From the IMG/VR virus record IMGVR_UViG_2636415833_000004: a stretch of DNA of 32,502 bases. One strand, written 5' to 3'. This stretch comes from a virus. Taxonomy: Duplodnaviria; Heunggongvirae; Uroviricota; Caudoviricetes. How positions within the stretch are numbered: position 1 is the first letter of the stretch; every line of letters starts with the position of its first letter. Under the pieces are notes generated by a model. That model ran no database searches, was not told the origin of the DNA, and was given only the letters and a program-made list of their open reading frames with translations. Of this stretch, positions 2,598 to 23,151 are shown piece after piece. The position numbers were made by a program, and so were the translations under genes.

Positions 2598-3229
2598 TTG
2601 TCTTTGTCCGTTTTGACAGCTGATCCGGCCGTACCGTTTGACGTCGTATCCGCTTTTGATTCAGACGGCGACGGGGCCAGCCAATCATCAATTTTTTTCC
2701 AGAATTTATCTGATGACGACATTTCAGTGTCTGGCGGTGTATTTTCCCCAGAAGATGCACCCGGCGTCGTAATACCTGGCGTTGTCTGCGAAACAACCCC
2801 GCCCAGTTTTGAAAATACGTTGGCCTCTTTTTTCTCCGGCACACTGCTGTACTCCCGCAGAGTGAACGACACGTTCCACGCCCGCAGTGAATCCGATTCC
2901 GGCGCGCTCAGACGCCCGGTGAATGTCGCCTGGCGCATGTTGATCGCCGTGGCGGTGAGATTAGAAACGCGGTAAACCGTCTGCTTTCCGCCCTCGTCCA
3001 CCCCTTCCGCCAGTTCAAAAATACGCGTAAGAAATTCAACATTACGAAACGGAATCACGCCGCTGACGTTTAATTCCTTTGCTTTTATCCCGCCCTCACT
3101 TTTCTGCGTTCCCGACGTCTGGCCAGACTGATCTTTGTCTTTGAACGGCAAAACAGCCTCCACTTTCAGATTCAGCATTTTTACCGTTTCGCCGTTCAGC
3201 GTTAAAATTACTGGGTGTCTCGTGCTCAT
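2594..3229 (-). CDS. hypothetical tail-module protein (Ser/Thr/Pro-rich C-terminus)
   Basis: 211-aa ORF, ATG start, ATGA-coupled on both sides within the late operon. Confidence 0.4.
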   Translation of the reverse strand: MSTRHPVILTLNGETVKMLNLKVEAVLPFKDKDQSGQTSGTQKSEGGIKAKELNVSGVIPFRNVEFLTRIFELAEGVDEGGKQTVYRVSNLTATAINMRQATFTGRLSAPESDSLRAWNVSFTLREYSSVPEKKEANVFSKLGGVVSQTTPGITTPGASSGENTPPDTEMSSSDKFWKKIDDWLAPSPSESKADTTSNGTAGSAVKTDKDK

Positions 3230-4095
3230 ATGCAGCCCTTCAAAAACGACAGATCCGCGCCAGTGAACAGCACGACAGCAGTAAAAATAAAAGAATGGCC
3301 GGGCGGGCTACTGGATTCCAGCGCAGACGCCAGTGACGCACCGCCACCGCTTCCCTTCCAGGACCAGACCTGCGCGGCGGTTTCGTTCAGCTTGTCAAAG
3401 TCACCAGCCAGATCAGAAACAGCCTTTTCACGCAGCTTTACCAGTTCCGCCAATGTATCGACCGGCGCGCGGGTTTTATGTGCGGCCAGCATCGCCATTT
3501 CTGACAACAGCAGGCGGCGCGATTCACGGTGATTTTTTTCGATCAGGTCGCCAGACTCCGGCCACGCCGGATAGGTCAGCGCGCCGGGGCGTTGCATTTT
3601 CTGGGATTCCTTGCCAGCGTGAGCGCGGGCGGTGTTCAGTGCCTGCGTAAATCCGGGGGCGGGCAAGGTGTCACAGACTTTTGTCAGCTTGCTAATGAAG
3701 TCCCCAATCTGACCAGCGCAAACAAGTAAACAAACGGCGTCACCGCCTGCGCCCATTCTCAGATCTGCACCATCGCGCAATTTTTCGGCCAGCCGTTTGA
3801 CGGCGTTCGGCGGGCTAAGATAAGTGCCGCTTTCTTCCTCCTTACCCGCGCCAAACGTCCAGTTATGAACGGCGATTTGCTGCCCGTTCGTTGTCAGTTT
3901 ATCCAGTTCGACGCGCAGATCGGCAACCTGATCCGCCTGCCCCGCCAATTCTGGCTGCGGCCACTGCGCCCGCGATTCCAGCGCGCGCAATGCGTTAATG
4001 CCAGGGGATGACAGCGACGACAACGCACCGTTTAACGTGTCATGCGGCGTTTTCACTTCATCCGGCAGTTTTAACTGTCCATTACTCCACGCCAT
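3226..4095 (-). CDS. hypothetical protein, unknown function
   Basis: Track start at 4188 is TTG with a 118-nt overlap; first ATGs at 4113 and 4095, the latter preceded by a GGGG Shine-Dalgarno-like element; no recognisable motif. Confidence 0.35.
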   Translation of the reverse strand: MAWSNGQLKLPDEVKTPHDTLNGALSSLSSPGINALRALESRAQWPQPELAGQADQVADLRVELDKLTTNGQQIAVHNWTFGAGKEEESGTYLSPPNAVKRLAEKLRDGADLRMGAGGDAVCLLVCAGQIGDFISKLTKVCDTLPAPGFTQALNTARAHAGKESQKMQRPGALTYPAWPESGDLIEKNHRESRRLLLSEMAMLAAHKTRAPVDTLAELVKLREKAVSDLAGDFDKLNETAAQVWSWKGSGGGASLASALESSSPPGHSFIFTAVVLFTGADLSFLKGCI

Positions 4096-4559
4096 GAATA
4101 ACCCCGCTCCCATTCGCTGGAAACCAGCGCGTGTAACTGGCCGGGCGAATAACGCCAGGCATCCCGTAACTGCATAAATTCGGCACAAAACTCGCTACAA
4201 AACCACTTTTCAGGATTCCCACGGCAAAACAGCAAAAAGCCGATAACCCCGGCGATGTCGTATTTTTTCCCCGCGTACAGGCGGTAAAAACTGGCGATTT
4301 CCTGCGGGCTGGCGCTGATTTCGATCAAGTCCCATTTGTCAGAGGGTAAAGGCATTGTTTTAGCCCTGACCCCGCCATCACGGAACGATGACGAATAGCA
4401 GGTAAAATCCGTGCCGACGTCGTAGCACTGCGGCCCCACGGCGATTTCACAATGTGAATACGGACTGCGGGTAACAAGGCGTGTCACCCAGTCCGCCAGG
4501 CTGGCTAGTCCGTTGTGATCGCTGCGGCCACGATAAAACGCAATAAACACCGCGTTCAT
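4071..4559 (-). CDS. putative permuted papain-fold (YiiX/YaeF, NlpC/P60-superfamily-like) cysteine peptidase/amidase
   Basis: Track start 4568 is GTG; ATG at 4559 forms ATGA overlap with tail fibre assembly gene stop; conserved-looking His (YSHCEIAV) before Cys (WFCSEFC), the order typical of permuted NlpC/P60 enzymes; assignment from memory. Confidence 0.4.
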   Translation of the reverse strand: MNAVFIAFYRGRSDHNGLASLADWVTRLVTRSPYSHCEIAVGPQCYDVGTDFTCYSSSFRDGGVRAKTMPLPSDKWDLIEISASPQEIASFYRLYAGKKYDIAGVIGFLLFCRGNPEKWFCSEFCAEFMQLRDAWRYSPGQLHALVSSEWERGYSWRGVMDS

Positions 4560-5158
4560 GGTTGCCACCCCAGGGACCAGTCGTAAGCCTCAACGGCGGC
4601 AATATCGCCCAGGGCATCCACTGCCGCAATATGCGCCTGCGCAACGGCAAACAAACGCATATCGTGTTCAATGGTCACAAACTCAAACTGTGCGGCGATT
4701 GCGTTGGTCAGTTCAATCAGCCCGTTATTTTTGGTTTGCCACATCAGACCGGGCGGAACCGCGCCCGCCTGTCCCATTTTTGCCAGCGTCATCTGCTGAA
4801 TGCGGCTGTTAGCGTCGCTATGGAAGCGATTCCCGTCGATCACGATGTAATCGGCGGTGACGGCGTCCCTATGTGCTTTTATATCCTGTTCAACCTGCGC
4901 TTTAATCTGCTTCAGCGCGGCGGCAAATGCTGCCGCGTCATAAATCCATTTATCACCGTCCAGGCGATAATATTCGCCCGGTGGCGGCGTTGTTACGAGC
5001 TTTCCAGCAGCGGGATTTACCCAGCAATCACGATCGCGGTAACGCCACTGCACATCCGTTAATTGCATGACCGTTTCAGGCAGAACAATGTCAAACTGAT
5101 CGGTGTCCAGCCATGCTAGGACCTTCATTGATTCAGAATCAAAATATACATATTTCAT
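4556..5158 (-). CDS. tail fibre assembly protein (gpG-like chaperone)
   Basis: 200-aa ORF immediately downstream of the tail fibre gene, ATG start; position and size typical of tail fibre assembly proteins. Confidence 0.6.
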   Translation of the reverse strand: MKYVYFDSESMKVLAWLDTDQFDIVLPETVMQLTDVQWRYRDRDCWVNPAAGKLVTTPPPGEYYRLDGDKWIYDAAAFAAALKQIKAQVEQDIKAHRDAVTADYIVIDGNRFHSDANSRIQQMTLAKMGQAGAVPPGLMWQTKNNGLIELTNAIAAQFEFVTIEHDMRLFAVAQAHIAAVDALGDIAAVEAYDWSLGWQP

Positions 5159-5161
5159 TGA

Positions 5162-7171
5162 TCACCATGACAATTTAACAAAACCCGGCGACCCATTGCC
5201 GCCCGGGAAACAGTTCGCACCAGAAGTCCCATAAGCACCAGCCGACCCGCCCGCACCGTATCCGGTGCCATTGTGACTACCACCGATAACCCCGCAACCA
5301 CCATCGCCATATACTGACGACGCTCCATTATTGCCCGCAGTGGCTTTTGTAGTACCAGTACCGCCAGTAGTACCACCATAACCACCAGAACCACCGGGTG
5401 ACGACACTCCCGAAAATGAAGACGCGCCGCCAGCAGTCCCCGAATTACCCTTGGTCATATTGCCTGCTGATGACGTGACTACGGTTCCCCCTACCCCCCC
5501 ACCTCCGACAACGACAGAAAGGACCGCGCCAGGTGTGACGGTGACAATTGTCGTCACCGGTTTTGACGCACCACCCCCACCACCAGAATATGCACCACCG
5601 CCACCGCCACCGCCGCCACCGCCGAGCACCTCTACCGACATTTTTTTTACACCGGCAGGGACAGTAAATGACCCATTCGCGGTGTACATTGCGTACTTAT
5701 TTAAGTAGCGCGCATCAGCATTTGTTACGGTGATAAAGTCCGGCGCGCCGGTAATATCCGACCAGGGGTGCTTATGGCTTGCGGCAGCTGCATTTACGTC
5801 GCTGTACGTCAGCGTGATGTCCGCTGACAACGCCTTATTGTTAACCTTGCGCGTTGTCGGAACGGCGTTTACATCGCTGTACGTCAGCGTGATGTCTGCT
5901 GACAGCGCCTTATTGTTCACCTTGCGCGTTGTCGGCACAGCGTTTACATCGCTGTACGTCAGCGTGATGTCTGCTGACAGCGCCTTATTGTTCACCTTGC
6001 GCGTTGTCGGCACAGCGTTTACGTCGCTGTACGTCAGCGTGATGTCCGCTGACAGCGGCTTATCGTTCACTTTGCGCGTTGTCGGCACGGCGTTTACATC
6101 GCTGTATGTCAGCGTAATGTCTGCTGACAGTGCCTTATTGTTCACCTTGCGCGTATCCTGCACCGCGTGAACAATGCGCGAATCATCCCCGGCAGCTACC
6201 GTCCCCGCCGCCGTTCCCACGTTACGGGTTGCAGAATTCCCCAGTTTTAAATTTTCGCGGGATTTCACTACATCATCCAGATCGGACAGATTTAGCGACC
6301 GGCGTAAATAGCGCTTATCCAGATCGTCACTGTTACGCACTGGCCGTAAATCAGTGACCGCCCCGTCTGCGGCAATTTCAGCGATTTTGAATACGTAGTG
6401 GGTTTTCCCCGCAGCGTCCGAATATTCAGCCAGATCGCCCGACGTAATAACGCAGATATCAGTGACCGGCACGCAGGCAGTCATGACAGACCCCTGCCAG
6501 ACAGTATCCAGCCAGACGGCGGCGGGTTTAGTCCCGATCGCGACATCCTGCGCGGCTTCGTTCGCCAATCGCAAACCGGCCACATAACCCAACCCAGGCA
6601 GGCAGTTATATTTCACCCCGCTACGTTGAACCAGCCACCCATCATCAAAAAACAGCGCACTGCCGTAATGATCGATATTCAGTAAACGCTGATAATCATC
6701 AATACCCGTCAGACGGGCGGTAAAATCGATCTGCCACGTTTCGGCAGGTGTATTAATCCCTGTCTTGTCTGCAGCACCGTTAAATTCAATCAAAAACGAG
6801 CGGGTAAACGCGTTTCCCTGTTCCGTCGCCGTCGTTTTCACCTTTTCCAGCGCCGGGACCGTTGTCACCATCGCTAAAAGGCCCGTTTTTTTGCAAATCA
6901 GTCCGATCCAGTTAAACGAAAAATTGCCGACGTTTGTTCCCAGGGTAAACGAGTACGCAACCGTGTTTTTATTAACCACGCCCGCAGCGTTGACGGATTC
7001 GCGGTAAACAATTTGCGCGGCATCCGGCAGACCGGCGTCACGGTTTATCACCGCATCCGGATCAAGGCCGGGCACATTAGCCAAAACAAATTCATCCAGC
7101 GAAATGTCGCCCGGCGTCAGCAGATCAGCGGCTTGCCATTGCTCAAACGCCGTCGTGATAATTGTTGCCAT
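5162..7171 (-). CDS. tail fibre protein with tandem 25-aa repeats and glycine-rich C-terminal domain
   Basis: 669 aa; N-terminus MATIITTAFEQW resembles P2 H-type fibre N-termini; five tandem copies of TRKVNNKALSADITLTYSDVNAVPT; C-terminal ~150 aa dominated by Gly runs. Confidence 0.75.
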   Translation of the reverse strand: MATIITTAFEQWQAADLLTPGDISLDEFVLANVPGLDPDAVINRDAGLPDAAQIVYRESVNAAGVVNKNTVAYSFTLGTNVGNFSFNWIGLICKKTGLLAMVTTVPALEKVKTTATEQGNAFTRSFLIEFNGAADKTGINTPAETWQIDFTARLTGIDDYQRLLNIDHYGSALFFDDGWLVQRSGVKYNCLPGLGYVAGLRLANEAAQDVAIGTKPAAVWLDTVWQGSVMTACVPVTDICVITSGDLAEYSDAAGKTHYVFKIAEIAADGAVTDLRPVRNSDDLDKRYLRRSLNLSDLDDVVKSRENLKLGNSATRNVGTAAGTVAAGDDSRIVHAVQDTRKVNNKALSADITLTYSDVNAVPTTRKVNDKPLSADITLTYSDVNAVPTTRKVNNKALSADITLTYSDVNAVPTTRKVNNKALSADITLTYSDVNAVPTTRKVNNKALSADITLTYSDVNAAAASHKHPWSDITGAPDFITVTNADARYLNKYAMYTANGSFTVPAGVKKMSVEVLGGGGGGGGGGAYSGGGGGASKPVTTIVTVTPGAVLSVVVGGGGVGGTVVTSSAGNMTKGNSGTAGGASSFSGVSSPGGSGGYGGTTGGTGTTKATAGNNGASSVYGDGGCGVIGGSHNGTGYGAGGSAGAYGTSGANCFPGGNGSPGFVKLSW
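5786..6154 (-). repeat. five tandem 75-bp in-frame coding repeats inside the tail fibre gene
   Basis: Near-identical 75-bp units visible directly in the DNA; encode aa ~340-462 of the fibre; not CRISPR (no spacers, fully coding). Confidence 0.85.
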
Positions 7172-7177
7172 TGTTAT

Positions 7178-7723
7178 TTATTCCCTGATAAGTGACGCGG
7201 CGTGACACACATAGTCATTGTGTACGCTGCCCGCCTGAATATTGATCGGCGTGGATGTTAACGACTGGAAGCGATAGCGGCGGCAGGTGCGCCCGTACTG
7301 CCGGACAATTTCACGCAGCAAATCACCGTGTTCAGAGATCTGCCTGTCGGTCAAATCCAACAAAATGACGTCCCAGTCAATACCGTCTACACGCTCATTT
7401 ATCCCGACAAAACCTATTTCCAGCCGTTCAAATATCCGGGCAAAACCCGCCGTGCTGCCTGCATCCTGCGCATTAATGAACGCGTAATTCACGCGGCGGC
7501 GGAACAGATCCAGCGGCTCCGCGTTTAAGCGGGTGACGTCACGCTGCCAAGCCAGCAAAAAGAGGATCGTTTCGTTACAGGTCAGCGCATCAAACTGCTG
7601 CAACGGCCAGCGCAGCCACGCGTCAAGCCAAAGCCAGAAACGTTTGCACGCTGCCGCCAGCTTTTGCGGTTCGCCTTTGTTCATCCAACAGGGCAATTTA
7701 ATGTTCATCATGCGCTGCCCCAT
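7178..7723 (-). CDS. baseplate/tail protein, P2 gpI-like
   Basis: 181 aa; LLAWQRDV segment resembles the LPWLAWAFSVD region of P2 gpI; located between J-like and fibre genes as in P2. Confidence 0.6.
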   Translation of the reverse strand: MGQRMMNIKLPCWMNKGEPQKLAAACKRFWLWLDAWLRWPLQQFDALTCNETILFLLAWQRDVTRLNAEPLDLFRRRVNYAFINAQDAGSTAGFARIFERLEIGFVGINERVDGIDWDVILLDLTDRQISEHGDLLREIVRQYGRTCRRYRFQSLTSTPINIQAGSVHNDYVCHAASLIRE

Positions 7724-8892
7724 TTCACGCTCAATGACCGCAAGCGCGGAATATTCAGTTCACTGACGATGTCATCAAGAGAAAATTCAACAGACGACAG
7801 GGCGGGAAACGCCTCGTGAATTTCTTCACCCAACTTAGAAAAGCCAAACCGCGACCAGGGCCACGTTTTGGTAACGTCATACGCTGAATTCTCACGAAAC
7901 GCGCAGCGCACCATGTTTTCAACGACCCCCGGCAGATCAGCACGTTCAGCATCGGTAATCATCGCGTTATCCGGGGTGTGAAGCGTCACTTCAAGTTCAT
8001 GAAAGGTTTCCGGCATAGGGAAACATTGCATATCGTCGCCGTGTCCGTGGTTTCCCTGCCCCATCACGTAATCATTTACGGCTGCAATAAACGGATCACT
8101 GATCACACCTGCATCCAGCAATAAATACGCGTTAGCTGTTCCCGGTCCGCGCGGGGCGTCATGTAAGAAGAAAATGCGATCGGTACTCAATCCGGCCACA
8201 CTGGCGATCGCAGAGCGGTACACGGCGTCAATGTGATAGTTACCCACGACGTTAAACTGGTTACGGATACGCGGGCGAAATTCGTCGTCAGACTCACGAT
8301 CAGCGCCTGGCTTCGTCAGCCAGTCATCGCCGGTCGTCACTTCCGCAACTCCTGCCACTGCGACGGGTAAAACATGGTAATAACCGGGCGCAAGGTTCCA
8401 GGCACTGCCCGCAGTGTCAGCCGTACAGGCGATCGATAGCTGCGCAATACCTGCGGGGATCATCGTCGTCGCATCCACAATCAGGCGATAAACTTCACCG
8501 TTAACGCGTTCGGTCTGAATGACAGTGCCTGCGGGAATTGTCACATTTTCATCGGCACTGGTTTTAATAAACGTCACCGCGCCCTGGGCGCACGTCGCCG
8601 CCTTACGTTCCAGACGGACCGCCCACGCCAGCAGGTCAAGCCACGTCCCAATCGCTGTAGCAACAAAAAGGTTAGTCAGAACCACATCTGCCAGCACGTC
8701 ACGCAGCCACAGCACCGGTTTAGTGACAATGGCGGAAATCAGACGCCAGAACGGCGACATTAACGACGTGTTAGTGACCAGCCCTTCGTCGTCGGCGACA
8801 GCCTGAAACTTCGCCTGAATTTCCTTTTCCGTACCCGGCAGGCCCGCGTCATCCAACAGGGCGCGGTAATCGGGTTTAGGTGCATCACTCAT
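7708..8892 (-). CDS. baseplate J-like protein
   Basis: Track start 8913 is TTG; ATG at 8892 has GAGG 7 nt upstream and an 8-nt overlap with upstream stop; W-J-I-H-G order as in P2. Confidence 0.6.
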   Translation of the reverse strand: MSDAPKPDYRALLDDAGLPGTEKEIQAKFQAVADDEGLVTNTSLMSPFWRLISAIVTKPVLWLRDVLADVVLTNLFVATAIGTWLDLLAWAVRLERKAATCAQGAVTFIKTSADENVTIPAGTVIQTERVNGEVYRLIVDATTMIPAGIAQLSIACTADTAGSAWNLAPGYYHVLPVAVAGVAEVTTGDDWLTKPGADRESDDEFRPRIRNQFNVVGNYHIDAVYRSAIASVAGLSTDRIFFLHDAPRGPGTANAYLLLDAGVISDPFIAAVNDYVMGQGNHGHGDDMQCFPMPETFHELEVTLHTPDNAMITDAERADLPGVVENMVRCAFRENSAYDVTKTWPWSRFGFSKLGEEIHEAFPALSSVEFSLDDIVSELNIPRLRSLSVKWGSA

Positions 8893-9220
8893 AAACAACC
8901 TCAACAGGATCAATCAGTCCGAATTCATACGTTTCTGCCGTCACAATGACGCGGCCTGCCGCTTCCTCATACACGCGCACCGTTCCGGGGATTAGGCGGT
9001 TATCCGTTTCCACCATCAGAATAATTTGCAGATAAACATCATTGCGCATGACAGCGGAACGCTGGCCGATAAGGTGCGTTGCCAGATTGCTTTCAATGAT
9101 GGCGTGTTTAATGTCCTGACCAATGCTGACGCGGTTGTCACATAGCGTTGGTTCACGTCCGGTATTCAAAAGAAAATCACCGTTAACAATTTTCAGATCG
9201 ATATACAGTTGTTCAGTCAT
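8885..9220 (-). CDS. small baseplate protein, candidate gpW/gp25-like
   Basis: 111 aa, ATGA-coupled to tape measure stop, immediately upstream of J-like gene; size and position fit gp25-like wedge proteins. Confidence 0.45.
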   Translation of the reverse strand: MTEQLYIDLKIVNGDFLLNTGREPTLCDNRVSIGQDIKHAIIESNLATHLIGQRSAVMRNDVYLQIILMVETDNRLIPGTVRVYEEAAGRVIVTAETYEFGLIDPVEVVYE

Positions 9221-11550
9221 CCCGCCGACATCTCCGCCATTTCCGCTATTTGCTGGGCGTCCTGCGCCTGCTGCACATACACATTGACGTTACCCACGCT
9301 GCGGCTGTTATTTATATTGGTCGTGCTTTTTGTTGTTTTGCTGCTGACGTTGGCTACACCCGGATCAAGCACCCCGCCGCGTAATACGGCTGGGCTGGAA
9401 GGTGGCGCAGGCGGCTGCGCGCCAGGGACAACAAACGCAGAGGCAACACCCGACACTGGCGCAACCAGGGGCGACGCGCCCCCCGGAATAGCGGCGGCAA
9501 CTGACGCCGCCTGCGCAGCCGTTCCCGTCTGGCCCGGCGCTGCGGTTCCTTTTAACTCAATGTTGACGCCGGGCAGTTTGTTTAACTGCTCAACAATGCC
9601 GTTATAGACGCCGAAAAATTGCTGGGCGATTGAATCCCACAAACCGGAAAACAACTGGCCGACCGACTCAACGCCCGACCTGAAAGCATCAGCAAATGAA
9701 AATTCAGAGAAAGCGGCGCAGACGCTGTTCCAGCCCGCGACCACATCCGGCCAGACCTTAACCAGCCAACTGACAGCACTGATCAGCAGATTGATCGGAA
9801 ACAGAATGGCGTCGAAAGCTGCAGCAACGACAGAACCGGCCATGCTGCCAGCGTCAGAAAAAGAGGACAGTTCATTTTCGGTATACTGAATCGGTGTCAG
9901 CAGGTCGCCAAACCAGCCGCAAAGACTTTTCAGGCCATTCCACAACCAACTAACCACGGAACAGACAGCAGAAAATACCGGCCCCAACGCGGCGATCACA
10001 CCTTGCAACACCTGCGACTTTTGCGCCGCCTGCATGAAGCCAGTGATAAAACCGCTGAAAAATGCCTTGATCGGATTCCAGAACTTAACGACAGCGACAA
10101 CAACCGCACCGATCGCCAGCGCAATAAGCGCAATCAGCCCCCAGATCGGGGCAGTGACTGCGGCCAGACTCCCGCCAAATGACATCAACGCAAGGCGCGC
10201 AGCAAATAAGGTGTTACGGAAAAACCGCAACGCCCCCGAAAAATTAAGAATTGCACCAGCACCACGCGCCAGAAGTTTAAACAGCGGGGTGATCCCGGTG
10301 AAAATCCCCGCCAGCCGGATTCCGGCCCCAGCCAACTTTAAACCGCCCAGCATGACCGTAAATGCGGCCCCGGCTGCGGTGGCGCTGATAATTGCTGCCG
10401 TAACAATCCCGATCCAGCGCGTAATGTTCGGGAATTTATTCAGCCAGACGACAGCCGACTGGGCGACCTTTGTCATTTTTATCAGTAGCGGTTCCAGAAC
10501 CGGCAACAACGCAGACCCCACAGCAATTTTTACCGCCGTAATACCTGCGGCGGCGCGCTCCCACGGATCGGCAACCGTGGCGGCGGCGCGTTTTACGTCG
10601 TCCAGCCCGTCGATCGCGTCGATCTCGCTGATACTGCGTTTCAGCCCGTCCGTATCGCTGATCAGCAACTTGATCAGGGAAACCGCTTCATCACTGCCAA
10701 ACGCTTTTTTCAGCAGGTCAGAATCCGCCACTTTGCTGATATTCCCGAACCGCTTATGCAGCATGTCGAGAATTGCAGGCATTGACTTCATTTGCCCGGT
10801 GGCATCGGTAAACGACATTTTCAGCGTTTTCTGGGCGTTCCCTACCCCCGCCAGAAACGCCTTATATTTTGTCCCGGCTTCACTGCCTGACATTGTTGAC
10901 TGCAACTGACCCAGGATCGCGAATTGTTCCGCACTGCTGCGGCCTGCTGTTTGCGCAGCGGCCCCCAGTGACGTAAACGCCTGCGACATTGATTCACCGT
11001 CAGATTTAAACAGGTTGGCCGCATAGGCGGTTTGCCCGCCGATTTTCTCAGCCCATTTAATTTTGCCCATGCCGTCAGCAGTCTGTTTAAAGATGCCGTA
11101 CATGGTCCCCATATAGTTTGTGATCGTCTGCGTATCGGCCTTTGTCGCCTTTGCAACAACCGCTGACGTGGTTGTGAATCCGGTCAATTCATCAGCAGAC
11201 AATCCAGAAATTGCGGACTGAATATCGTAAGACGCGCTGACGATCTCCGCCGCGCTGCCGCCGTACTGCATACTGAATTGAAGCGCCGCGTTTTTAAGCT
11301 GCTTTAATCCCGTTTCGGTTACGTCCAGCGCCTTTACAGAGTCCAGCGCGCGGCGCATTTCGATCGCCGGTTCCAGCCCGCCTTTTAATGCCTGGCCTGC
11401 GGCCCACATTGCCGCCGTTCCCATTGCAACCTGCTGCGCGCCGCTTTTTGCCGTCTGGCCCAGTGCGCTGACCTGCTGACGAATACCGCGCAGTGGGGCG
11501 CTTGCGCGGTCAATCAGAGAAATAATATAAGTCAGCGATTCACTAGCCAT
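9217..11550 (-). CDS. tail tape measure protein
   Basis: 777 aa, Ala/Gly-rich with extended helical and hydrophobic segments, directly downstream of chaperone gene with frameshift signature. Confidence 0.8.
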   Translation of the reverse strand: MASESLTYIISLIDRASAPLRGIRQQVSALGQTAKSGAQQVAMGTAAMWAAGQALKGGLEPAIEMRRALDSVKALDVTETGLKQLKNAALQFSMQYGGSAAEIVSASYDIQSAISGLSADELTGFTTTSAVVAKATKADTQTITNYMGTMYGIFKQTADGMGKIKWAEKIGGQTAYAANLFKSDGESMSQAFTSLGAAAQTAGRSSAEQFAILGQLQSTMSGSEAGTKYKAFLAGVGNAQKTLKMSFTDATGQMKSMPAILDMLHKRFGNISKVADSDLLKKAFGSDEAVSLIKLLISDTDGLKRSISEIDAIDGLDDVKRAAATVADPWERAAAGITAVKIAVGSALLPVLEPLLIKMTKVAQSAVVWLNKFPNITRWIGIVTAAIISATAAGAAFTVMLGGLKLAGAGIRLAGIFTGITPLFKLLARGAGAILNFSGALRFFRNTLFAARLALMSFGGSLAAVTAPIWGLIALIALAIGAVVVAVVKFWNPIKAFFSGFITGFMQAAQKSQVLQGVIAALGPVFSAVCSVVSWLWNGLKSLCGWFGDLLTPIQYTENELSSFSDAGSMAGSVVAAAFDAILFPINLLISAVSWLVKVWPDVVAGWNSVCAAFSEFSFADAFRSGVESVGQLFSGLWDSIAQQFFGVYNGIVEQLNKLPGVNIELKGTAAPGQTGTAAQAASVAAAIPGGASPLVAPVSGVASAFVVPGAQPPAPPSSPAVLRGGVLDPGVANVSSKTTKSTTNINNSRSVGNVNVYVQQAQDAQQIAEMAEMSAG

Positions 11551-11553
11551 AAT

Positions 11554-11996
11554 TTATCCAAATAATTTAGCGACGCCATTCGCAACGCCAATACTGAAAT
11601 TTTCCCAGTAATGGTTATCAAGCCAGACAGCGCGGGCTAATGTCTGCTCTGAATCATCACCATCAGGCAGATAATAACGGCGCAGGGTTAGCATTTGTTC
11701 CAGCCCGTTATTTTCAATAGCCCGCACGCGGGCAGTTATTTTTTTACAACAATATCCAGTTCCGGCGCGTACTGTTTATTAACAGCCGCCGCGATCTGAA
11801 TGGCTGCACCTGGCTTTTTCAGGATGCCGTTTAATGCGTCCTTACTTTCGCGGGAAACAATGGCGCGCACATATTCAACTGATGGCGTAACTTTGTTATC
11901 CATTGCCATTTCATTGATAAAAGAGTTATAGGCGACTTCGTTCGGTTCGAAAACAACATCCACACCGGAAATAGTCAGCGTAATAGATTCATCCAT
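11554..11996 (-). CDS. predicted -1 frameshift fusion product of tail chaperone (E+E'-like)
   Basis: -1 frame is open for 61 codons from the slippery site to TAA at 11554..11556, exactly filling the gap before the tape measure ATG at 11550. Confidence 0.5.
11720..11745 (-). promoter_or_regulatory. programmed -1 ribosomal frameshift site: A AAA AAA slippery heptamer plus downstream hairpin
   Basis: Seven consecutive A (complement of 11739..11745) at the last two codons of the chaperone; GCCCGC/GCGGGC inverted repeat (11720..11733) begins 5 nt downstream. Confidence 0.5.
11736..11996 (-). CDS. tail assembly chaperone (P2 gpE-like)
   Basis: 86 aa, ATG start, immediately upstream of tape measure gene; ends in A7 slippery run. 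Confidence 0.65.
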   Translation of the reverse strand: MDESITLTISGVDVVFEPNEVAYNSFINEMAMDNKVTPSVEYVRAIVSRESKDALNGILKKPGAAIQIAAAVNKQYAPELDIVVKK

Positions 11997-12045
11997 TTTT
12001 ATTTATCCAGAATAAAGAAGTTAATATTTTAAAGCGTTTAAATGG

Positions 12046-12384
12046 TTATTTAACGCCGTTGTGTTCCAGACTGAAATGATTTCCGTCTGGTTTACTGAAA
12101 CGACCGCCCCACGTCCCGCCGAGCGATTCCCAATACTCCCCAAGCGGCAAGTAATCACGACTGTCTGTCTTATATTCGCCTTTGATAAACAGATTAAAAT
12201 CGACGGCCAGTCGCTGCGTATGCAAACTGTTTTTAATGCCGCTGCCTTTTTTGGCATTCAGTGCCGCCTGTTCCGGCGTGCGGTACGCTTCACCAAATGT
12301 CAGCCAAAAGCCATTCGCGTTGGCGTACTGGATTAATAAAGCGATCATTGATGTAAATCGCTGCTGCTTTTCACTCAGTGTCAT
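12046..12384 (-). CDS. endolysin, peptidase M15 family (L-alanyl-D-glutamate peptidase-like)
   Basis: ATG at 12384 with GGGAG 9 nt upstream, 14-nt overlap with holin stop; H-x6-D (HTQRLAVD) and D-x2-H (DGNH) zinc-ligand motifs. Confidence 0.75.
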   Translation of the reverse strand: MTLSEKQQRFTSMIALLIQYANANGFWLTFGEAYRTPEQAALNAKKGSGIKNSLHTQRLAVDFNLFIKGEYKTDSRDYLPLGEYWESLGGTWGGRFSKPDGNHFSLEHNGVK

Positions 12385-12673
12385 TTGTCTTGCTCCCGTT
12401 CCTGGACTGCGCACGATTACGCAGCCATAGTTCAACCGCCTGATAGCCCGCAATACCGAAAGCAGCCCCCAGACCGTTTATTGCAACGGGGTGTAAATCA
12501 GGGAACTGAATCAATGCAACACCGGCCACCATCGACACCGCAGCGCCTAAAATTACGCGTCCAATAATTAAACGCAGTGTGATCGGTTCAGCGGTATTCA
12601 ACACCTTACCCAATGCAATTAATGCGCCAATCCCCGCCAAAGTGAGAATGCTTTTTTCATGCGGTGTTAACAT
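12371..12673 (-). CDS. holin (three predicted transmembrane segments, charged C-terminus)
   Basis: 100 aa with three hydrophobic helices and a basic/polar C-terminal tail, immediately upstream of and overlapping the endolysin gene. Confidence 0.7.
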   Translation of the reverse strand: MLTPHEKSILTLAGIGALIALGKVLNTAEPITLRLIIGRVILGAAVSMVAGVALIQFPDLHPVAINGLGAAFGIAGYQAVELWLRNRAQSRNGSKTNDTE

Positions 12674-12677
12674 ATAA

Positions 12678-13139
12678 TTACCCGATTAAATCGCGGGTAT
12701 CTTCATCTGACAGATAAGGAATACCATTAATTTTGATAAATTCAGGCGCAGTCACTTTATATTTAATTTTATAAACTGATTTTTCGCCGCCTGCGGTGTC
12801 CACGTCCAGCAAACTGTCAATTGCCAGCTTACATCCAAAAGCCTCGACTTTAATTTTTTCGCTTCCCGCCTTTGCATAAAATAAAATGTCTTCCGGTTCA
12901 ATTCCGCGATAACTGCCAGCCGATGCCGCCGCATCATGGATACGTAAAAAGTTTTTGGTATCCAGTTCCATGTCACCTTCGGCGCTGACGTCGCCGTCAA
13001 CATAACCATCAGGAATGCCGCGCGTTTTCGCTACGTCAGAGTTATCAGTAATAGTCAGTGTAATTTTATTTACATGAATCGTGGTATTGAATAACGTAAT
13101 ATCAAACGCCATTCCCGAAATGCGTTTAGAACCCGACAT
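12678..13139 (-). CDS. putative tail tube protein
   Basis: Track start 13145 is TTG; ATG at 13139 has GAGG upstream; about 153 aa directly downstream of putative sheath gene. Confidence 0.5.
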   Translation of the reverse strand: MSGSKRISGMAFDITLFNTTIHVNKITLTITDNSDVAKTRGIPDGYVDGDVSAEGDMELDTKNFLRIHDAAASAGSYRGIEPEDILFYAKAGSEKIKVEAFGCKLAIDSLLDVDTAGGEKSVYKIKYKVTAPEFIKINGIPYLSDEDTRDLIG

Positions 13140-13141
13140 AA

Positions 13142-14281
13142 TCAAGCCTCATTCTGTACAGACAGATCAACCATAATATTTACGCCAATAACCAGCGGGC
13201 ATTCAGTCGGGCGCGCCTGTACGTAAATATTTACATGCGTTGAATCAATCCATGTAATAACAATATCACCCTCTTTTGGTGAATAGACTTCACCGGGGAA
13301 TGACACGCCGTTAATAGTGGTACTTTTCGCCATCGTGCGCAGCGGTTTAGCAAACTGCATTTGATGATATTCAACGCTGGACGGCGTGGAATTTAACGAG
13401 CGGTTACCAATATTGCGGATTGCAAGCAAACGCACCTGGCGCGCGACTTTATCAACAATGCGCAGAATGCGGATTGACTGATAATCGCTGCCTTTAGCAG
13501 CCAGCAGCGGGCCATCATTCCAGTAAATGCCCTCAAAATCCGCATACGTGACCGGAACAGAATAACGCGCAGCGTCCAGCGCCTGCACAATATCCGCTGT
13601 TACCGTCTCTCCGTTTTTGTCTTTAGTTGCGTTGCCAACAGACACGAGCGATCCAGTTAAAACGCGCGCGGGAGTATCTGCAATTGTCACCAGCCGATTA
13701 CATAAACGTCCAGCAATTACACCTGGCAAATTCTCATAAAGACGGGGAACCAGCATAACGCCATCAGCAACTAACCCCGTTTGCCATTGCGTTAAAGCGG
13801 CGGAATATTGTTGCCATGTCATGTCACCGCCAACAGGATTTTTAACGGGTAAAATAAACCATGTCCAACGACCGTATGTCGCGATTAATTCCTGGCGGAG
13901 AGCGGCAGCTTCTTTGGCGCTTTTAGTTAGAGAAAAACCGGACTCTTCTTCATTCCAGTCAGCAAAATCCTCTAACAATACAACGCCCTCAAAACTTCCG
14001 TATTTTTGGCATTTTTTAACAGCATCCTGCCACTTTTCGTCAGAATCCATAAAATAAACCGATGCCGACCAATTTTGCCCCGCATTCATCATGGCGGCGC
14101 GAATATCGTCACCCGCTGAACTTGTAATTTTGTCTAAATCAGTTTGAGTATTTAGCGTGTAAAAACCTGGGGTGTAATTTTCAAGCGGCGCATAGCTGAC
14201 GAACAATAAATGCCGCCCTATTTCATTTACAGTGCCTTGCGCCAAATCAATTTGATTAACCTGAACTTGTGGAAAAGTCAT
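13142..14281 (-). CDS. putative tail sheath protein
   Basis: 379 aa, ATGA-coupled to upstream gene, followed by a ~150-aa tube-sized gene; positional and size inference. Confidence 0.5.
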   Translation of the reverse strand: MTFPQVQVNQIDLAQGTVNEIGRHLLFVSYAPLENYTPGFYTLNTQTDLDKITSSAGDDIRAAMMNAGQNWSASVYFMDSDEKWQDAVKKCQKYGSFEGVVLLEDFADWNEEESGFSLTKSAKEAAALRQELIATYGRWTWFILPVKNPVGGDMTWQQYSAALTQWQTGLVADGVMLVPRLYENLPGVIAGRLCNRLVTIADTPARVLTGSLVSVGNATKDKNGETVTADIVQALDAARYSVPVTYADFEGIYWNDGPLLAAKGSDYQSIRILRIVDKVARQVRLLAIRNIGNRSLNSTPSSVEYHQMQFAKPLRTMAKSTTINGVSFPGEVYSPKEGDIVITWIDSTHVNIYVQARPTECPLVIGVNIMVDLSVQNEA

Positions 14282-14910
14282 TTTTTTCTCACCTTTTTTA
14301 ATTCCTGCGCTAATATTCGCGCGTTATGTTTTGAGCGGGTATCCAGCCAGGGGCGCGGCGGCGCGGGGATGTCCCATTCTTTTTTCGCGGCTTCTTCTTT
14401 CAGAATGCGAATGATTAGCCCCGCCTGACCCTGCTTAATGTTCTGCGTAATCCATTTAATTGACGGCGTTTTTTTCTTTTTGCCCTGTTTAACCGTGTAA
14501 CCAAGCTGGCGCAGCTTTACCGCCTGACCACGCGTGACCGGCGCATCATATGCAGGCTGGCCGCGCTGGCGCTTGAGCTGCGCAGCCGTCACATGCTCCG
14601 GCTTACCGTAGTGATGGCGCGCTGCCATATCGCTATGAACAGGGTTTTTCCAGTGCAACTTCACATCGTCAGAAGTCGGCGTAATACTCATTAGCGCAGG
14701 AATGCGGCGCATCATTTTTTTACTGCCACGCTGGCGCTTTTCCCATCCGCGCCCGTCCGGCGTTCGCTGCGCCCTGGCTTTCTGTTGCGCTTCCCGCTTA
14801 ATCCGCCTGGCGGCATTCTGCAAAACCTGCCGCCTTTTTGCCGGTGGCAGTTCCAGCGCCGCAAGCCTGATTAATGCTTCACGCTGGCCGCGCAGATCGG
14901 TTCTAATCAC
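14278..14910 (-). CDS. phage virion morphogenesis / tail completion protein (gpS-family-like)
   Basis: Track start 15084 is TTG and overlaps upstream gene; GTG at 14910 with GGGGTGG upstream; segment ARRIKREAQQKARAQRTPDGRGW resembles virion morphogenesis family; basic C-terminus. Confidence 0.5.
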   Translation of the reverse strand: MIRTDLRGQREALIRLAALELPPAKRRQVLQNAARRIKREAQQKARAQRTPDGRGWEKRQRGSKKMMRRIPALMSITPTSDDVKLHWKNPVHSDMAARHHYGKPEHVTAAQLKRQRGQPAYDAPVTRGQAVKLRQLGYTVKQGKKKKTPSIKWITQNIKQGQAGLIIRILKEEAAKKEWDIPAPPRPWLDTRSKHNARILAQELKKVRKK

Positions 14911-15382
14911 CGGCCACCCCAACAGACAGATCGTAATGTTCTGCCGTCCAGATCTCCGGCTCAGACAATGACCAGCGCCTGCCGTCCCACTCAATAACCC
15001 CCTGCGCATCTTCGCGAACACACAGCGGGCAACTGAATTTAATCGTGATTTCCACGTCGGCGATTTCCTCCGCCGACTCAGCAATCACCAGTGACGGATC
15101 GGGCAATTCCAGTTCATCCCGGCGCGTGTCACAATCTGCCAGCCAGCCAGTAATCAGGCAGAACAGCAGCGCAGGCGGATAAACACGGAACGGGTAATTT
15201 TCGAATGACAGCACCGCGTCAAACTGTAATTGCGCCATTTCGCTATACAGCCCCATATCGCGCGGGGCATAAACCAGCGACGCGTTTTCCATCCATGAAT
15301 CAAGGCAGGCTGACACCTTCGGCGGCAACTTGCCGATCAGATATTCAGTCAACGCATTAAGCTGCGTGCGTGTCGGCGTCAT
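14903..15382 (-). CDS. putative tail completion protein (gpR-like)
   Basis: 159 aa, ATG start ATGA-coupled to L-like gene; sits between head completion and S-like genes. Confidence 0.45.
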   Translation of the reverse strand: MTPTRTQLNALTEYLIGKLPPKVSACLDSWMENASLVYAPRDMGLYSEMAQLQFDAVLSFENYPFRVYPPALLFCLITGWLADCDTRRDELELPDPSLVIAESAEEIADVEITIKFSCPLCVREDAQGVIEWDGRRWSLSEPEIWTAEHYDLSVGVAGD

Positions 15383-15831
15383 AACAGCCTCACCGTGGCG
15401 CGGGCATAGCCCATAATCTGGCGGATAACCTGCGCAGCTTCACCGCGTAAGCCGTCCGCCGTTTCCTGCAATTCCGCGCCGGGGTGCGTTTCACGACGTC
15501 CCACGGTGGCAAATTCCGGCATTAAATCGGCTTTCGCCCTGGCAAAAACAGCCTTTTTGTAAGACTCAGTCAGCGCGTTAGCCCCTTCACACGACGGCCC
15601 CGGAACATCTGCCGCAGAGGAATACCCCTTGCCGTGTTGAATATCGGTCCAGGTATCCAGATCACGGTTTACGCTGTCAATTGCCGCAAGTAGCGCCGCG
15701 ATAACCGTCGCATTGGCGATACTGGCGGGGATCTGGCGGCGTTCCTCAAATTCTCCGGCGTTAATATCCGGCCAGAACCCCACGTTTTTGATCACGCGGT
15801 CCTGGTAATTCGCCGTTTTGCCGGAAAACAT
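15379..15831 (-). CDS. L: head completion/stabilisation protein (P2 gpL-like)
   Basis: 150 aa, ATG start overlapping M stop (TAATG); position after terminase small subunit as in P2. Confidence 0.6.
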   Translation of the reverse strand: MFSGKTANYQDRVIKNVGFWPDINAGEFEERRQIPASIANATVIAALLAAIDSVNRDLDTWTDIQHGKGYSSAADVPGPSCEGANALTESYKKAVFARAKADLMPEFATVGRRETHPGAELQETADGLRGEAAQVIRQIMGYARATVRLL

Positions 15832-21798: not shown

Positions 21799-21830
21799 AA
21801 AAAGGGCAGATTTGAACTGCCCATTATCTT
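21797..21830 (-). terminator. rho-independent terminator between convergent ogr-like and cargo genes, strongest on minus strand
   Basis: GGGCAG (21804..21809) / CTGCCC (21817..21822) stem with 7-nt loop; A7 on plus strand gives U7 on minus strand directly after the hairpin. Confidence 0.65.
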
Positions 21831-23151
21831 ATTCAGTCCCCTTTTCCATCTGCTGTGGCTTATCTGCAACTACAGAGGGTTTAGCCTTACGATCAAGGAT
21901 ATTTTTAACATAGTTTACATTATCAATCGAAGAATCAAGAAATTTAGAAAAAGCTTTAGAGTTTAACATTTCCATCCATGGTGTTGAGTGATCATCACCT
22001 TGGACAAATCTTAATGGGGCTTCCTCTAGACGGGTTAAAGCAGAATCAAACAACCGAGTAGCGAATGTTCCATCATCAAGTTGCGATGCTTCTTTTCTGT
22101 AACCCTCATATGCTTTTGCAACGGCAGACTTAAAGGCATAATCTTCTGCTAGCTTAAATCTTTGATTAATTTGCTTTGTAGACAACCACGCAAACCAAAG
22201 CGGCGCGCCGATACTAAATATGGATAGTATTAATTGCGTTGCAATCACTATTGCACTGGTATCTGGTTGCGCTAAAACATTGGATAATGCTTTTAACCTT
22301 TCATAACCAACAAACCCACCGGCAATTAATGCCGCAGATAATCCTGCTACCCATAAACGAATGCTACAGTTTAACTTATTCGCTTTGATCTCAAAAGCTC
22401 CCGCTAACCCTTTTGAAGTCGAAGCACGAATAGCTTCCTCACATTTCGAAAGATAATTTTCTGCGATCTCTTTTTTTGCATTTAACTCTTCTTTTATCTT
22501 TTCCCCTTCGTTTAGACAAACATCCATTAAGACATTCGAATGAGATGCTTCTTCTTTTGCCTTTAAAATGTACTCTTTTATTTCCGTTAATTCTGCCTTG
22601 TATTTATTTAACTCTTCCATATATACCGGTAGATTATCAGCTGCGGCATATGCATCGTTAATCAATTTAATTTTACCTTCCAGTGTTTCAATTTCTGGAG
22701 TAGCTTGTCTTACTCTTGCATCCATACTCCGTATTTTACGTGCTAATTTCTGAGGTACGGCATCCGTATCCTGGAGTCGGTCGAAGGAAATCAAAGAATC
22801 TAAAAATGAAGATATATATGTCATGGTCATTAAAAATGAAGGAATCGCTTGTACACCATTTCCATTATAAAAGCTAGGAGCAAGGTCAGAATGTACCTTT
22901 GTTACGACTTTTCTTACATAGTCGAGTTCATCTAGTTCGAAATCAGTTAATTTAAGCATCTCTAATTTTTTTGACTTCTCGATCATTCTTTCAATATAGT
23001 CAGAAAAGTCTTTTGGCAACATTACAGGATGACCGATGCCAAATGCTTCTATAAGCCATTTATTTTTATGCCCATATGATTTTTCAGACTCATCAAAATA
23101 ATCTTTTAATTTATCTAGAGCATTTATAAATTCATTTAACTCAGCGTACAT
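21829..23151 (-). CDS. hypothetical coiled-coil / two-transmembrane-helix protein; candidate accessory (defence or exclusion) gene
   Basis: 440 aa, ATG with GAGGT 5 nt upstream; visibly AT-rich; coiled-coil N-terminal half, two hydrophobic helices (aa ~265-283 and ~299-323), ~115-aa C-terminal domain; no similarity recognised to phage core proteins. Confidence 0.75.
   Translation of the reverse strand: MYAELNEFINALDKLKDYFDESEKSYGHKNKWLIEAFGIGHPVMLPKDFSDYIERMIEKSKKLEMLKLTDFELDELDYVRKVVTKVHSDLAPSFYNGNGVQAIPSFLMTMTYISSFLDSLISFDRLQDTDAVPQKLARKIRSMDARVRQATPEIETLEGKIKLINDAYAAADNLPVYMEELNKYKAELTEIKEYILKAKEEASHSNVLMDVCLNEGEKIKEELNAKKEIAENYLSKCEEAIRASTSKGLAGAFEIKANKLNCSIRLWVAGLSAALIAGGFVGYERLKALSNVLAQPDTSAIVIATQLILSIFSIGAPLWFAWLSTKQINQRFKLAEDYAFKSAVAKAYEGYRKEASQLDDGTFATRLFDSALTRLEEAPLRFVQGDDHSTPWMEMLNSKAFSKFLDSSIDNVNYVKNILDRKAKPSVVADKPQQMEKGTE

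Follow-up and report, generated by a model that had tools for sequence, protein, structure and literature searches.

HP1-type order of tail and lysis genes in an Escherichia coli prophage without a recognisable Rz/Rz1 spanin pair

The window, the whole 32,502-nt stretch of DNA that was analysed, contains a region that we read, with a probability of about 0.88, as the middle of the late gene string for morphogenesis and lysis in an E. coli prophage that is an HP1-type rather than a P2-type peduovirus. The genes run in the order L, R-like, S-like, sheath, tube, holin, M15 endolysin, chaperone (with a -1 extension), tape measure, DUF2590, J, I and fibre (Table 1), which corresponds gene-for-gene to the order in Haemophilus phage HP1, Aeromonas phage phiO18P and Escherichia phage ESSI2_ev239 and recurs across various Enterobacterales genera, in 43 syntenic loci found with the window's endolysin. 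From portal to fibre the block is collinear with those three phages at 32–61% amino-acid identity, holin and endolysin excepted, so the architecture is that of a standard HP1-like peduovirus. The missing spanin is the one real deviation from this standard.

HP1-like gene order is the defining, published architecture of its group (PMC2771037), with Lavigne et al. cited for this tail order as the group standard; the HP1-like branch of the Peduoviridae has been described since 1996 (HP1, Esposito et al. 1996) and was separated from the P2-like phages in 2009. In HP1 (Hpunavirus) and phiO18P (Bielevirus), the late genes follow the order L, orf21 (R), orf22 (S), orf23 (sheath), orf24 (tube), hol and lys, continuing with the spanin, orf26 (chaperone), orf27 (tape measure) and orf28–31, and their tail proteins are 32–61% identical to those of the window, where the HP1-specific Pfam families PF10758, PF10772, PF10761 and PF25759 are all present. 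Megablast of the region against the sequenced phages of INPHARED gave no match, and relatives were therefore sought at the protein level, at which the best INPHARED identities were 61% for TerL and 48% for the sheath. By TerL (61%), the closest sequenced phages are those of the ESSI-2 group (Escherichia/Cronobacter; Evevirus; ESSI2_ev239, NC_049392), whose portal-to-fibre order is identical to that of the window. ESSI2_ev239 also shares the holin family (58% identity), the M15 endolysin (81%), the DUF2586 sheath, the HP1_Orf24 tube and the chaperone with its frameshift site, the heptamer there being A_AAA_AAC. Because its structural proteins are only 32–61% identical to those of the ESSI-2 type, the prophage in the window likely represents a separate genus-level lineage.

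Table 1 Features of the late gene string and its surroundings, in coordinates of the window; the start of the S-like gene and the limits of genes within 951–8892 are taken from the PGAP annotation of the E. coli 40EC prophage.
Feature	Position	Strand	Evidence and remarks
Ogr/Delta-type activator gene	21484–21798
Gene string, scaffold gene to last tail gene	18527 to 951	minus (all)	stops and starts overlap or nearly abut
gpL-type head completion/head-tail adaptor	15379–15831	minus	PF05926 7.6e-38; phrog_71; last P2-like head-module gene
gpR-like tail terminator	14903–15382	minus	PF06891 9.2e-17; phrog_65 'tail terminator' 2.8e-19
gpS-like tail completion/Neck1, 210 aa	14278–14910	minus	PF05069 5.5e-6; phrog_26 1.1e-16
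Contractile tail sheath, HP1 orf23/DUF2586 family, 379 aa	13142–14281	minus	PF10758 1.3e-103; phrog_907 'tail sheath' 4.9e-117
Tail tube, HP1 Orf24 family, 153 aa	12678–13139	minus	PF10772 7.2e-61; phrog_1182
Holin, 100 aa	12371–12673	minus	PF04550 8.9e-40; phrog_175; at least 2 hydrophobic segments (TMD scan)
M15 zinc-peptidase endolysin, 112 aa, soluble	12046–12384	minus	PF13539 6.9e-10; phrog_1768/465 'endolysin'
AT-rich spacer, 49 nt	11997–12045		endolysin stop to chaperone ATG; site of Rz/Rz1 in relatives
Tail assembly chaperone, 86 aa	11736–11996	minus	PF10963 1e-33; HP1 orf26 position
Slippery heptamer A_AAA_AAA	11739–11745	minus	directly before chaperone stop codon; predicted -1 frameshift site
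GC-rich hairpin GCCCG-CGTG-CGGGC	11720–11733	minus	palindromic; 5 nt downstream of slippery site
-1 frame chaperone extension, DUF6890	11554–11738	minus	61 codons after predicted shift; PF21830 8.9e-21; phrog_7050
Tape measure, 777 aa	9217–11550	minus	PF10145 7e-31; phrog_28 1.2e-95; several hydrophobic segments
DUF2590 protein in gpW (baseplate wedge) position	8885–9220	minus	PF10761 3e-38
Baseplate_J	7708–8892	minus
I-like protein	7178–7711	minus	Tail_P2_I, weak
Fibre	5162–7171	minus
DUF4376 protein	4556–5128	minus
Two unknown proteins	4071–4559 and 3226–4095	minus
HP1_ORF34 baseplate protein	2594–3229	minus	
548-aa baseplate protein	951–2597	minus
Strong terminator-like hairpin and T-run	923–938	minus	6 GC pairs, then TTTTTT; just past last tail gene

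The 379-aa and 153-aa proteins, which the sequence-only reading had called sheath and tube from their positions, now have direct support for these roles. Profile searches place them in DUF2586 and HP1_Orf24, respectively, and not in unrelated families; the corresponding PGAP names are "DUF2586 domain-containing protein" and "phage protein". The DUF2586 family comprised 1,114 hits. Alignments of the two families gave hhalign probabilities below 1% against P2 FI and FII, and structure prediction was therefore needed; tblastn likewise found no match between the two proteins and FI or FII, and sequence-only searches of the PDB with single sequences and profiles returned chance matches only. Confidence in the AlphaFold2 models is medium, at a pLDDT of about 70 (69.8 for the sheath and 70.4 for the tube). 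In Foldseek searches of the PDB, the top 37 matches to the sheath model are all contractile sheaths (diffocin, phage 812, AFP, PVC, Milano and Mu), the best being diffocin CD1363 (6gkw; E 7e-8, TM 0.51). The tube model has the tube-protein fold, a beta-sandwich with one helix, and its best match is the diffocin tube CD1364 (6gkx), with a modest E value of 1.5e-4, followed by Hcp5, P74-26, A-1(L) and T6SS Hcp. These models point to HP1-specific sheath and tube families with fold-level support, in which the DUF2586 protein would polymerise as a contractile sheath round a tube of HP1_Orf24 protein.

Downstream of the lysis genes, the chaperone is predicted to be a programmed -1 frameshift gene. 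Of 48 related loci, 46 have a heptamer reading A_AAA_AAA or A_AAA_AAC at the corresponding position, HP1, phiO18P and ESSI2 among them, and in 46 the -1 frame stays open for 60–64 codons. In the window, the predicted junction reads ...VVKK|ITARV..., and frame arithmetic puts the end of the extension 4 nt before the tape-measure ATG. The arrangement is analogous to lambda G-T and P2 E+E′, and the chaperone and its frameshifted form would hold the tape measure during tube assembly. The hairpin just beyond the slippery site may perhaps stimulate shifting, but this is a weak suggestion because the hairpin, intact in the Salmonella-derived loci L059 and L060, is degraded in L006 and L056.

On the head side of the sheath, the gpL-type protein is 41–48% identical to its homologues in HP1, phiO18P and ESSI2 and 30% identical to P2 L, and the gpR-like and gpS-like genes occupy the HP1 orf21 and orf22 positions, the latter with a PF05069 score (26.8 bits) barely above the cut-off of 24.3. 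R and S would finish the tail. On the opposite side, the DUF2590 protein is a homologue of HP1 orf28 (57% identity); it has no tblastn match in P2 and therefore no sequence link to P2 W, its function being assigned by position. Together with J, I, the fibre and the distal HP1_ORF34-type proteins, it would build the baseplate. Open-reading-frame calls and family searches recover every gene of the earlier list, at its place and on the minus strand, and add four tail/baseplate genes (951–4559) beyond the G-position gene at which that list had ended.

Because the genes lie on one strand, overlap or nearly abut, and end at a terminator-like hairpin that is likely the end of the late transcript, late co-expression is most likely. 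The genes from 18527 to 951 would thus be transcribed together late in infection, driven by the Ogr/Delta-type activator. Promoter and terminator scans inside the operon stayed at chance level, as did the P2-type activator motif TGT-N12-ACA, which is not enriched. A 440-aa cargo gene gave nothing convincing with PADLOC or Pfam. A prophage 99.9% identical to this one is carried by E. coli 40EC.

The placement of the lysis genes between tube and chaperone, proposed from the sequence at the outset, is confirmed by open reading frames and family assignments. The holin is 55% identical to P2 gpY and 58% identical to the ESSI2 holin. The endolysin called earlier is indeed present, corrected to 112 residues with a start that overlaps the end of the holin gene by 14 nt, and it is 81% identical to the ESSI2_ev239 enzyme. 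A TMD scan of the endolysin found no signal or SAR segment and no hydrophobic segment, and its H55-x6-D62 and H103 may be the zinc ligands. The holin would accumulate in the inner membrane until, at a set time, it opens that membrane and gives the soluble M15 peptidase access to the peptidoglycan, which the enzyme would cut. The usual third step of lysis, fusion of the inner and outer membranes by an Rz/Rz1 pair, has no gene here. In HP1, hol and lys lie between ORF24 (tube) and ORF25 (PMC7312051), and the slot between tube and chaperone is fixed across HP1-like phages. Its contents vary: HP1 has a pinholin and a SAR muramidase (PMC7312051) and phiO18P a lysozyme with an inserted methylase, the holin and endolysin genes of both phages being unrelated to those of the window. 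Because of these unrelated holins and endolysins, and of the gpY-like holin in the window, limited mosaicism is real: the slot is fixed, and the lysis cassette in it is a swappable module.

The absence of a spanin, already suspected from the sequence, is borne out by several lines of evidence. In ESSI-2-type phages, overlapped Rz (110 aa) and Rz1 (lipobox LSAC) genes lie between endolysin and chaperone, where the window has only a 49-nt spacer. In all 43 syntenic loci the gap holds an Rz homologue and spans 482–603 nt, compared with 53 nt by the same measure in the window; an overlapped lipoprotein Rz1 is seen in ESSI2_ev239, L061 and L010, and a spanin is present in each of the four reference phages, including HP1 and phiO18P (PMC6139136). 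The window contains no sequence similar to the Rz proteins of ESSI2, HP1 or phiO18P, and no recognisable Rz/Rz1 remnant emerged when its endolysin-to-chaperone spacer was aligned with the stretch between Rz and chaperone in relatives. A six-frame lipobox scan of the whole window found no lipoprotein ORF, and the same scan did recover the o-spanins, known or expected, of ESSI2_ev239, HP1, phiO18P, P2 (lysC) and two other relatives. PHROG scans of 10 of the 13 small unknown ORFs gave no spanin match, and no small membrane ORF except the holin is conserved across the clade. These searches cover the canonical topologies, namely i-spanins with an N-terminal TMD and lipobox o-spanins or u-spanins. 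Several individual candidates were rejected. A 78-aa ORF within the endolysin gene (12021–12257), considered as an o-spanin, is without a proper lipobox, and the N1420 relative does not conserve it; a 33-aa out-of-frame 'LLSC' ORF (3240–3341) lies inside a tail gene and is too short after the Cys; and membrane-like ORFs of 97 aa (26268–26561) and 73 aa (28777–28998) are in the early region and match no spanin family, the second also not being conserved in N1420.

The same absence extends to relatives of this prophage. No spanin is found in any clade member examined, namely L004–L006, L054 and L056 and also the Salmonella-derived L059 and L060, whose sheaths are 66% and 74% identical to that of the window, and in the nearest outgroup examined, from Jejubacter (about 50%), the spanin slot holds two genes. 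We tentatively propose, at somewhat less than even confidence, that a clade of HP1-type prophages, diversified and seen in E. coli, Salmonella and E. albertii, has dispensed with the Rz/Rz1 pair; it encodes no lipoprotein in any frame. Its sheath clusters are 66–99% identical, with the spanin slot itself examined in the E. coli and Salmonella-derived members and the E. albertii member known only from its sheath cluster. The ancestor of this Escherichia/Salmonella clade would have lost Rz/Rz1 or swapped its whole lysis cassette for one without the pair.

Three other explanations were considered, one concerning the gene order and two the spanin. The head module does follow P2 order, with Q-P on one strand and O-N-M-L on the other, as open reading frames, the gpL family, tblastn and PGAP names agree, and P2 (Peduovirus) shares with the window an Ogr-type activator, an A-type replication endonuclease, an integrase, a gpY-like holin and the E/E′-type frameshift principle. 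The tail does not: the P2 record reads Q P / O N M L X Y K lysA lysB lysC R S / V W J I H G / FI FII E T U D, as the earlier contrast had it, with X-Y-K-lysA-lysB-lysC between L and R/S, V-W-J-I-H-G ahead of FI-FII-E-T-U-D, and a sheath and tube of the FI and FII families, to which those of the window have no detectable sequence similarity. A recent recombination that gave a P2-type phage a tail and lysis block of foreign origin, making it an unusual hybrid, would account for the restriction of tblastn matches with P2 to head genes, the holin, part of T, A and int, for the lower G+C of the sheath-to-chaperone block (42–50%, against 54–57% in its flanks) and for cassettes that differ among HP1, phiO18P and the ESSI2/window type. 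We consider this very improbable. Identities to HP1, phiO18P and ESSI2_ev239 by tblastn are 33–60% for the head and 32–61% for the tail, and this comparable divergence of two collinear modules means that the head-tail combination predates the whole HP1-like group; the published status of the architecture and its recurrence across Enterobacterales genera argue in the same direction. The 'mosaic tail' of the sequence-only reading therefore holds for its non-P2 order and swappable lysis cassette, but not as a noteworthy mosaic, since the order is the HP1-like standard.

The spanin gap could instead be a recent deletion in a decaying or cryptic prophage. Most of the region is present in just 8 of 5,426 complete E. 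coli genomes, and by INPHARED megablast and protein comparison the clade has no cultured phage, being known here from prophage and contig sequences. Cryptic decay is nonetheless unlikely. A spanin-less junction of 28–53 nt is kept in E. coli and Salmonella-derived contigs whose sheaths are 66–99% identical and at different integration sites (yeaE/mipA versus tRNA-Leu/yecA), the structural ORFs and frameshift signal are all intact, and the presence of this junction in every clade member examined shows that it is not the decay of one prophage. A non-canonical or elsewhere-encoded equivalent is doubtful, although about 13% of phages of Gram-negative hosts have no recognisable spanin and alternative topologies have been proposed (Kongari et al., PMC6139136); it could be a coiled-coil membrane protein with a tail anchor, a disruptin-like cationic peptide, or spanins that resident lambdoid prophages provide in trans. 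The lysis slot has no room for another gene, and the spanin-family and clade-conservation scans described above yielded no candidate. [quoted passage not shown] The spanin-less phages of Kongari et al. 2018 (such as phiKT and Petty), in which, as here, holin and endolysin are identifiable and neither an i-, o- or u-spanin nor a lipoprotein ORF is found in any frame (PMC6139136), are unrelated virulent phages, whereas the apparent loss here falls inside a family whose other sampled members keep Rz/Rz1. Such a loss, at a fixed slot in an otherwise Rz/Rz1-bearing family, gives a natural comparison with and without the pair.

The practical value of these results is chiefly that of a correction. 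When the tail of a P2-like prophage departs from P2 order, this does not signal recombination but marks the HP1-like branch, and fold-level support allows DUF2586 and HP1_Orf24 proteins to be annotated as sheath and tube. The spanin-less clade offers a lead that is modest but can be used: it pairs phages with and without a spanin, almost alike in holin and endolysin, in a genetically tractable host, and systems of this kind for studying outer-membrane disruption have been asked for (Kongari et al., PMC6139136). If the clade does lack spanins, its members would either release progeny without a dedicated outer-membrane step or encode an unrecognised outer-membrane disruptor. Because close spanin-positive relatives share the same holin and endolysin, these prophages would then provide a clean natural system for asking when enterobacterial spanins are dispensable.

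The tail and lysis genes at 8885-15382 follow the known standard architecture of the HP1-like group. The window, 32,502 nt long, equals IMG/VR contig UViG_3300028969_000137. This 6.5-kb region, 99.9% identical to a prophage of E. coli strain 40EC between yeaE and mipA, is covered by minus-strand genes whose stops and starts overlap or abut, a layout that continues far past both ends. Gene order was read from Pfam and PHROGs profile searches of the window's ORFs, and these searches, together with the ORF layout, confirm the order and contents described in the sequence-only reading in every item. That reading also held that the tail order departs from that of P2, and the P2 record, checked directly, agrees (Q P / O N M L X Y K lysA lysB lysC R S / V W J I H G / FI FII E E' T U D). 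It further proposed a mosaic tail module, and here only part of the claim survives. Three phages, HP1 of Haemophilus, phiO18P of Aeromonas and ESSI2_ev239 of Escherichia, are annotated with the window's order (L, tail terminator, Neck1/S, sheath, tube, holin, endolysin, spanin, chaperone, small ORF, tape measure, DUF2590, J, tail protein, fibre), which argues against a newly formed mosaic; moreover, Lavigne et al. 2009 set 'HP1-like viruses' apart from 'P2-like viruses' (PMC2771037), and HP1 hol and lys sit between ORF24, the tube gene, and ORF25 (PMC7312051). In tblastn comparisons, the window is collinear with the three phages from portal to fibre at 32-61% identity, with comparable divergence of head and tail genes, and P2 matches are limited to Q, P, O, N, M, L, the holin, a piece of T, A and int. 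The highlighted arrangement is thus ordinary for HP1-type phages.

What stands is a limited but real mosaicism, in which a fixed slot between tube and chaperone holds differing lysis cassettes: a pinholin and SAR muramidase in HP1, a lysozyme with an inserted methylase in phiO18P, and a P2-gpY-like holin with an M15 peptidase in the window and ESSI2. The window holin is 55% identical to P2 gpY (tblastn). All sequenced phages are distant, with best identities of 61% for TerL and 48% for sheath, each to an HP1-like phage; the element is therefore a new lineage, but of a type already known. G+C content is 42-50% in the sheath, tube, holin, endolysin and chaperone genes (11554-14281) and 54-57% in the neighbouring R, S, L, tape-measure and J genes; the low values could stem from a different origin of these genes or from a bias tied to expression.

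Profile searches place the 379-aa and 153-aa proteins in HP1 families, and neither hhalign comparison with P2 FI or FII nor sequence searches of solved structures detected a link for either. We therefore predicted both structures from alignments of database homologues and compared the models with the PDB by Foldseek. The top 37 matches of the sheath model (pLDDT 69.8) are all contractile sheath proteins, led by the diffocin sheath CD1363 (E 7e-8, TM 0.51) and followed by those of phage 812, AFP, PVC, Milano and Mu. The tube model (pLDDT 70.4) best matches the diffocin tube CD1364 (E 1.5e-4), then Hcp and phage tube proteins. At moderate model confidence, the sheath and tube calls, originally positional only, thus hold at the level of fold.

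The chaperone ORF ends ...GTA AAA AAA TAA, with the heptamer A_AAA_AAA directly before the stop and a GC hairpin 5 nt 3' of it. A -1 slip would yield ...KK-ITARVRAIENNG..., running through the DUF6890 ORF and ending just short of the tape-measure start. A_AAA_AAA or A_AAA_AAC with a -1 frame free of stops for 60-64 codons is found in 46 of 48 related loci, HP1, phiO18P and ESSI2 among them; judged from sequence, these loci keep the conserved G/GT or E/E' layout, in which -1 frameshifting probably occurs. Neither heptamer is present at the chaperone stop in the other two loci, from Erwinia psidii (L031, ~5074-5092, ending ...GTAAAGGCATAA) and Photorhabdus tasmaniensis (L042, ~5076-5094, ending ...GTAAAGGAATAG), where the frame may shift elsewhere, if it shifts.

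The chaperone gene also contains a perfect match to a type I-E CRISPR spacer of 32 nt from E. coli (TTACGCCATCAGTTGAATATGTGCGCGCCATT), with a canonical AAG PAM just 5' of the protospacer. Eight or more complete E. coli genomes have the spacer inside a region annotated as CRISPR, and the same 35-nt match occurs in up to ~19 E. coli genomes, with 7/8 among those listed so annotated. A search with the 6.5-kb region gave hints of further short matches.

Features of the window and the evidence for each
Feature	Position	Strand	Evidence
DUF4177-like 78-aa and YidD-family 71-aa proteins	1-452	+	71-aa: PF01809, 1.8e-18
Terminator-like hairpin	938-923		strong; terminator scan
Four further tail/baseplate genes past DUF4376 protein	to 951		one in 'HP1 ORF34 baseplate complex protein' family
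162-aa distal-tail gene	4071-4559	-	phrog_1128
Baseplate_J, then Tail_P2_I, fibre, DUF4376 protein	downstream of DUF2590		Tail_P2_I match weak
DUF2590	8885-9220	-	PF10761
Tape measure	9217-11550	-	PF10145
DUF6890 ORF	11554-11727	-	PF21830
Tail assembly chaperone	11736-11996	-	PF10963
Slippery heptamer	11745-11739		A_AAA_AAA
Protospacer	11859-11890	-	TTACGCCATCAGTTGAATATGTGCGCGCCATT
PAM	11891-11893		AAG
M15 peptidase (112 aa)	12046-12384	-	PF13539
Holin	12371-12673	-	PF04550
153-aa protein	12678-13139	-	PF10772 'Bacteriophage HP1 Orf24', 7e-61
379-aa protein	13142-14281	-	DUF2586, 1e-103; phrog_907 'tail sheath', 5e-117
gpS-like completion protein	14278-14910	-	PF05069, barely over cut-off; phrog_26, 1e-16
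gpR-like tail terminator	14903-15382	-	PF06891, 9e-17
gpL head completion	15379-15831	-	PF05926
440-aa cargo gene	21829-23151	-	phrog_34659
149-aa and 144-aa genes, overlapping	30075-30945 (144-aa: 30511-30945)	+	

Outside the tail and lysis genes, the window carries apparent cargo. The 440-aa gene (G+C ~37%, two hydrophobic segments) is flanked by ogr and the replication gene, where P2 has tin/old; it matches only a PHROG of unknown function, with no Pfam and no convincing PADLOC match. Its 98% identity in the N1420 prophage, where structural genes are only ~73-92% identical, suggests that a hotspot gene was exchanged recently. Past the last tail gene, the 78-aa protein and the 71-aa membrane protein insertion efficiency factor are 98-99% conserved in N1420 at a different chromosomal site and are therefore phage cargo, not host DNA. 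Between repressor and integrase, the 149-aa protein has Cys pairs resembling a zinc ribbon, and the 144-aa protein combines coiled-coil heptad repeats with a transmembrane anchor at its C terminus; N1420 carries a WYL-domain protein and a membrane protein there instead, and the position looks like a variable slot for lysogeny-expressed cargo. The phrog_1128 label of the 162-aa gene ('enoyl-CoA hydratase/carnithine racemase-like, moron') looks misplaced among baseplate genes; this gene has no Pfam match and is 67% identical in N1420.

The lysis cassette lacks a recognizable spanin, as had been noted from sequence. The endolysin stop and the chaperone ATG are only 49 nt apart. There is no Rz homologue anywhere in the window, no candidate with an N-terminal TMD near the lysis genes, no PHROGs spanin match from the small unknown ORFs submitted, and no o-spanin lipobox in a six-frame, all-starts scan of the entire window, a scan that recovered the o-spanins of ESSI2_ev239, HP1, phiO18P, P2 (lysC), a Jejubacter prophage and a Salmonella prophage. 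Possible spanin substitutes were considered and rejected, among them the 144-aa coiled-coil protein, which N1420 lacks. In HP1 (L001), the scan also found an 88-aa lipoprotein ORF at 11710-11976 (MQKIKIGLMAACLTMLLAC...) that overlaps the end of orf25 and is without annotation in the RefSeq record; this ORF presumably encodes the o-spanin of HP1, counted as two-component by Kongari et al., who list HP1, K139 and phiO18P under such families (PMC6139136).

Damage to one copy does not explain this absence, as the junction recurs in E. coli LZSFT34 (~95% nucleotide identity) and N1420 (~80%), in a second IMG/VR contig (sheath 87% identical) and in two Salmonella-derived contigs (sheath just 74% and 66% identical); the N1420 copy has another integration site, integrase and immunity region. 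By contrast, ESSI2_ev239 has Rz, with an N-terminal TMD, and an overlapped Rz1 lipoprotein (lipobox LSAC) in the gap. An endolysin scan of a genome collection gave 47 loci, 43 with the sheath-tube-holin-M15-chaperone order, and all 43 have a 482-603-nt endolysin-chaperone gap containing an ESSI2 Rz homologue. In Jejubacter, the nearest outgroup examined (sheath ~50% identical), two genes fill the slot. Read most simply, spanins were lost once in the ancestor of an Escherichia/Salmonella clade, or the entire cassette gave way to one that has none.

Judging from how the genes are arranged and from what is known of their families, head-completion, tail and lysis proteins would most likely be made together from a single long late transcript or a small number of them, under the Ogr-type activator. 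At a programmed time the holin would permeabilize the inner membrane, after which the cytoplasmic M15 peptidase would degrade the murein. Outer-membrane rupture could follow passively, perhaps through shear or low divalent-cation conditions, or through an unrecognized factor. Lambda spanin mutants can lyse without spanins under shear or low divalent cations.

Spanin-less phages are a recognized minority, ~13% in Kongari et al. (PMC6139136). The loss described here is a small clade-wide variant, open to experimental test. Truly spanin-independent release in a clade of enterobacterial temperate phages, to which we assign slightly less than even odds (roughly 0.45), would be of moderate interest if true.
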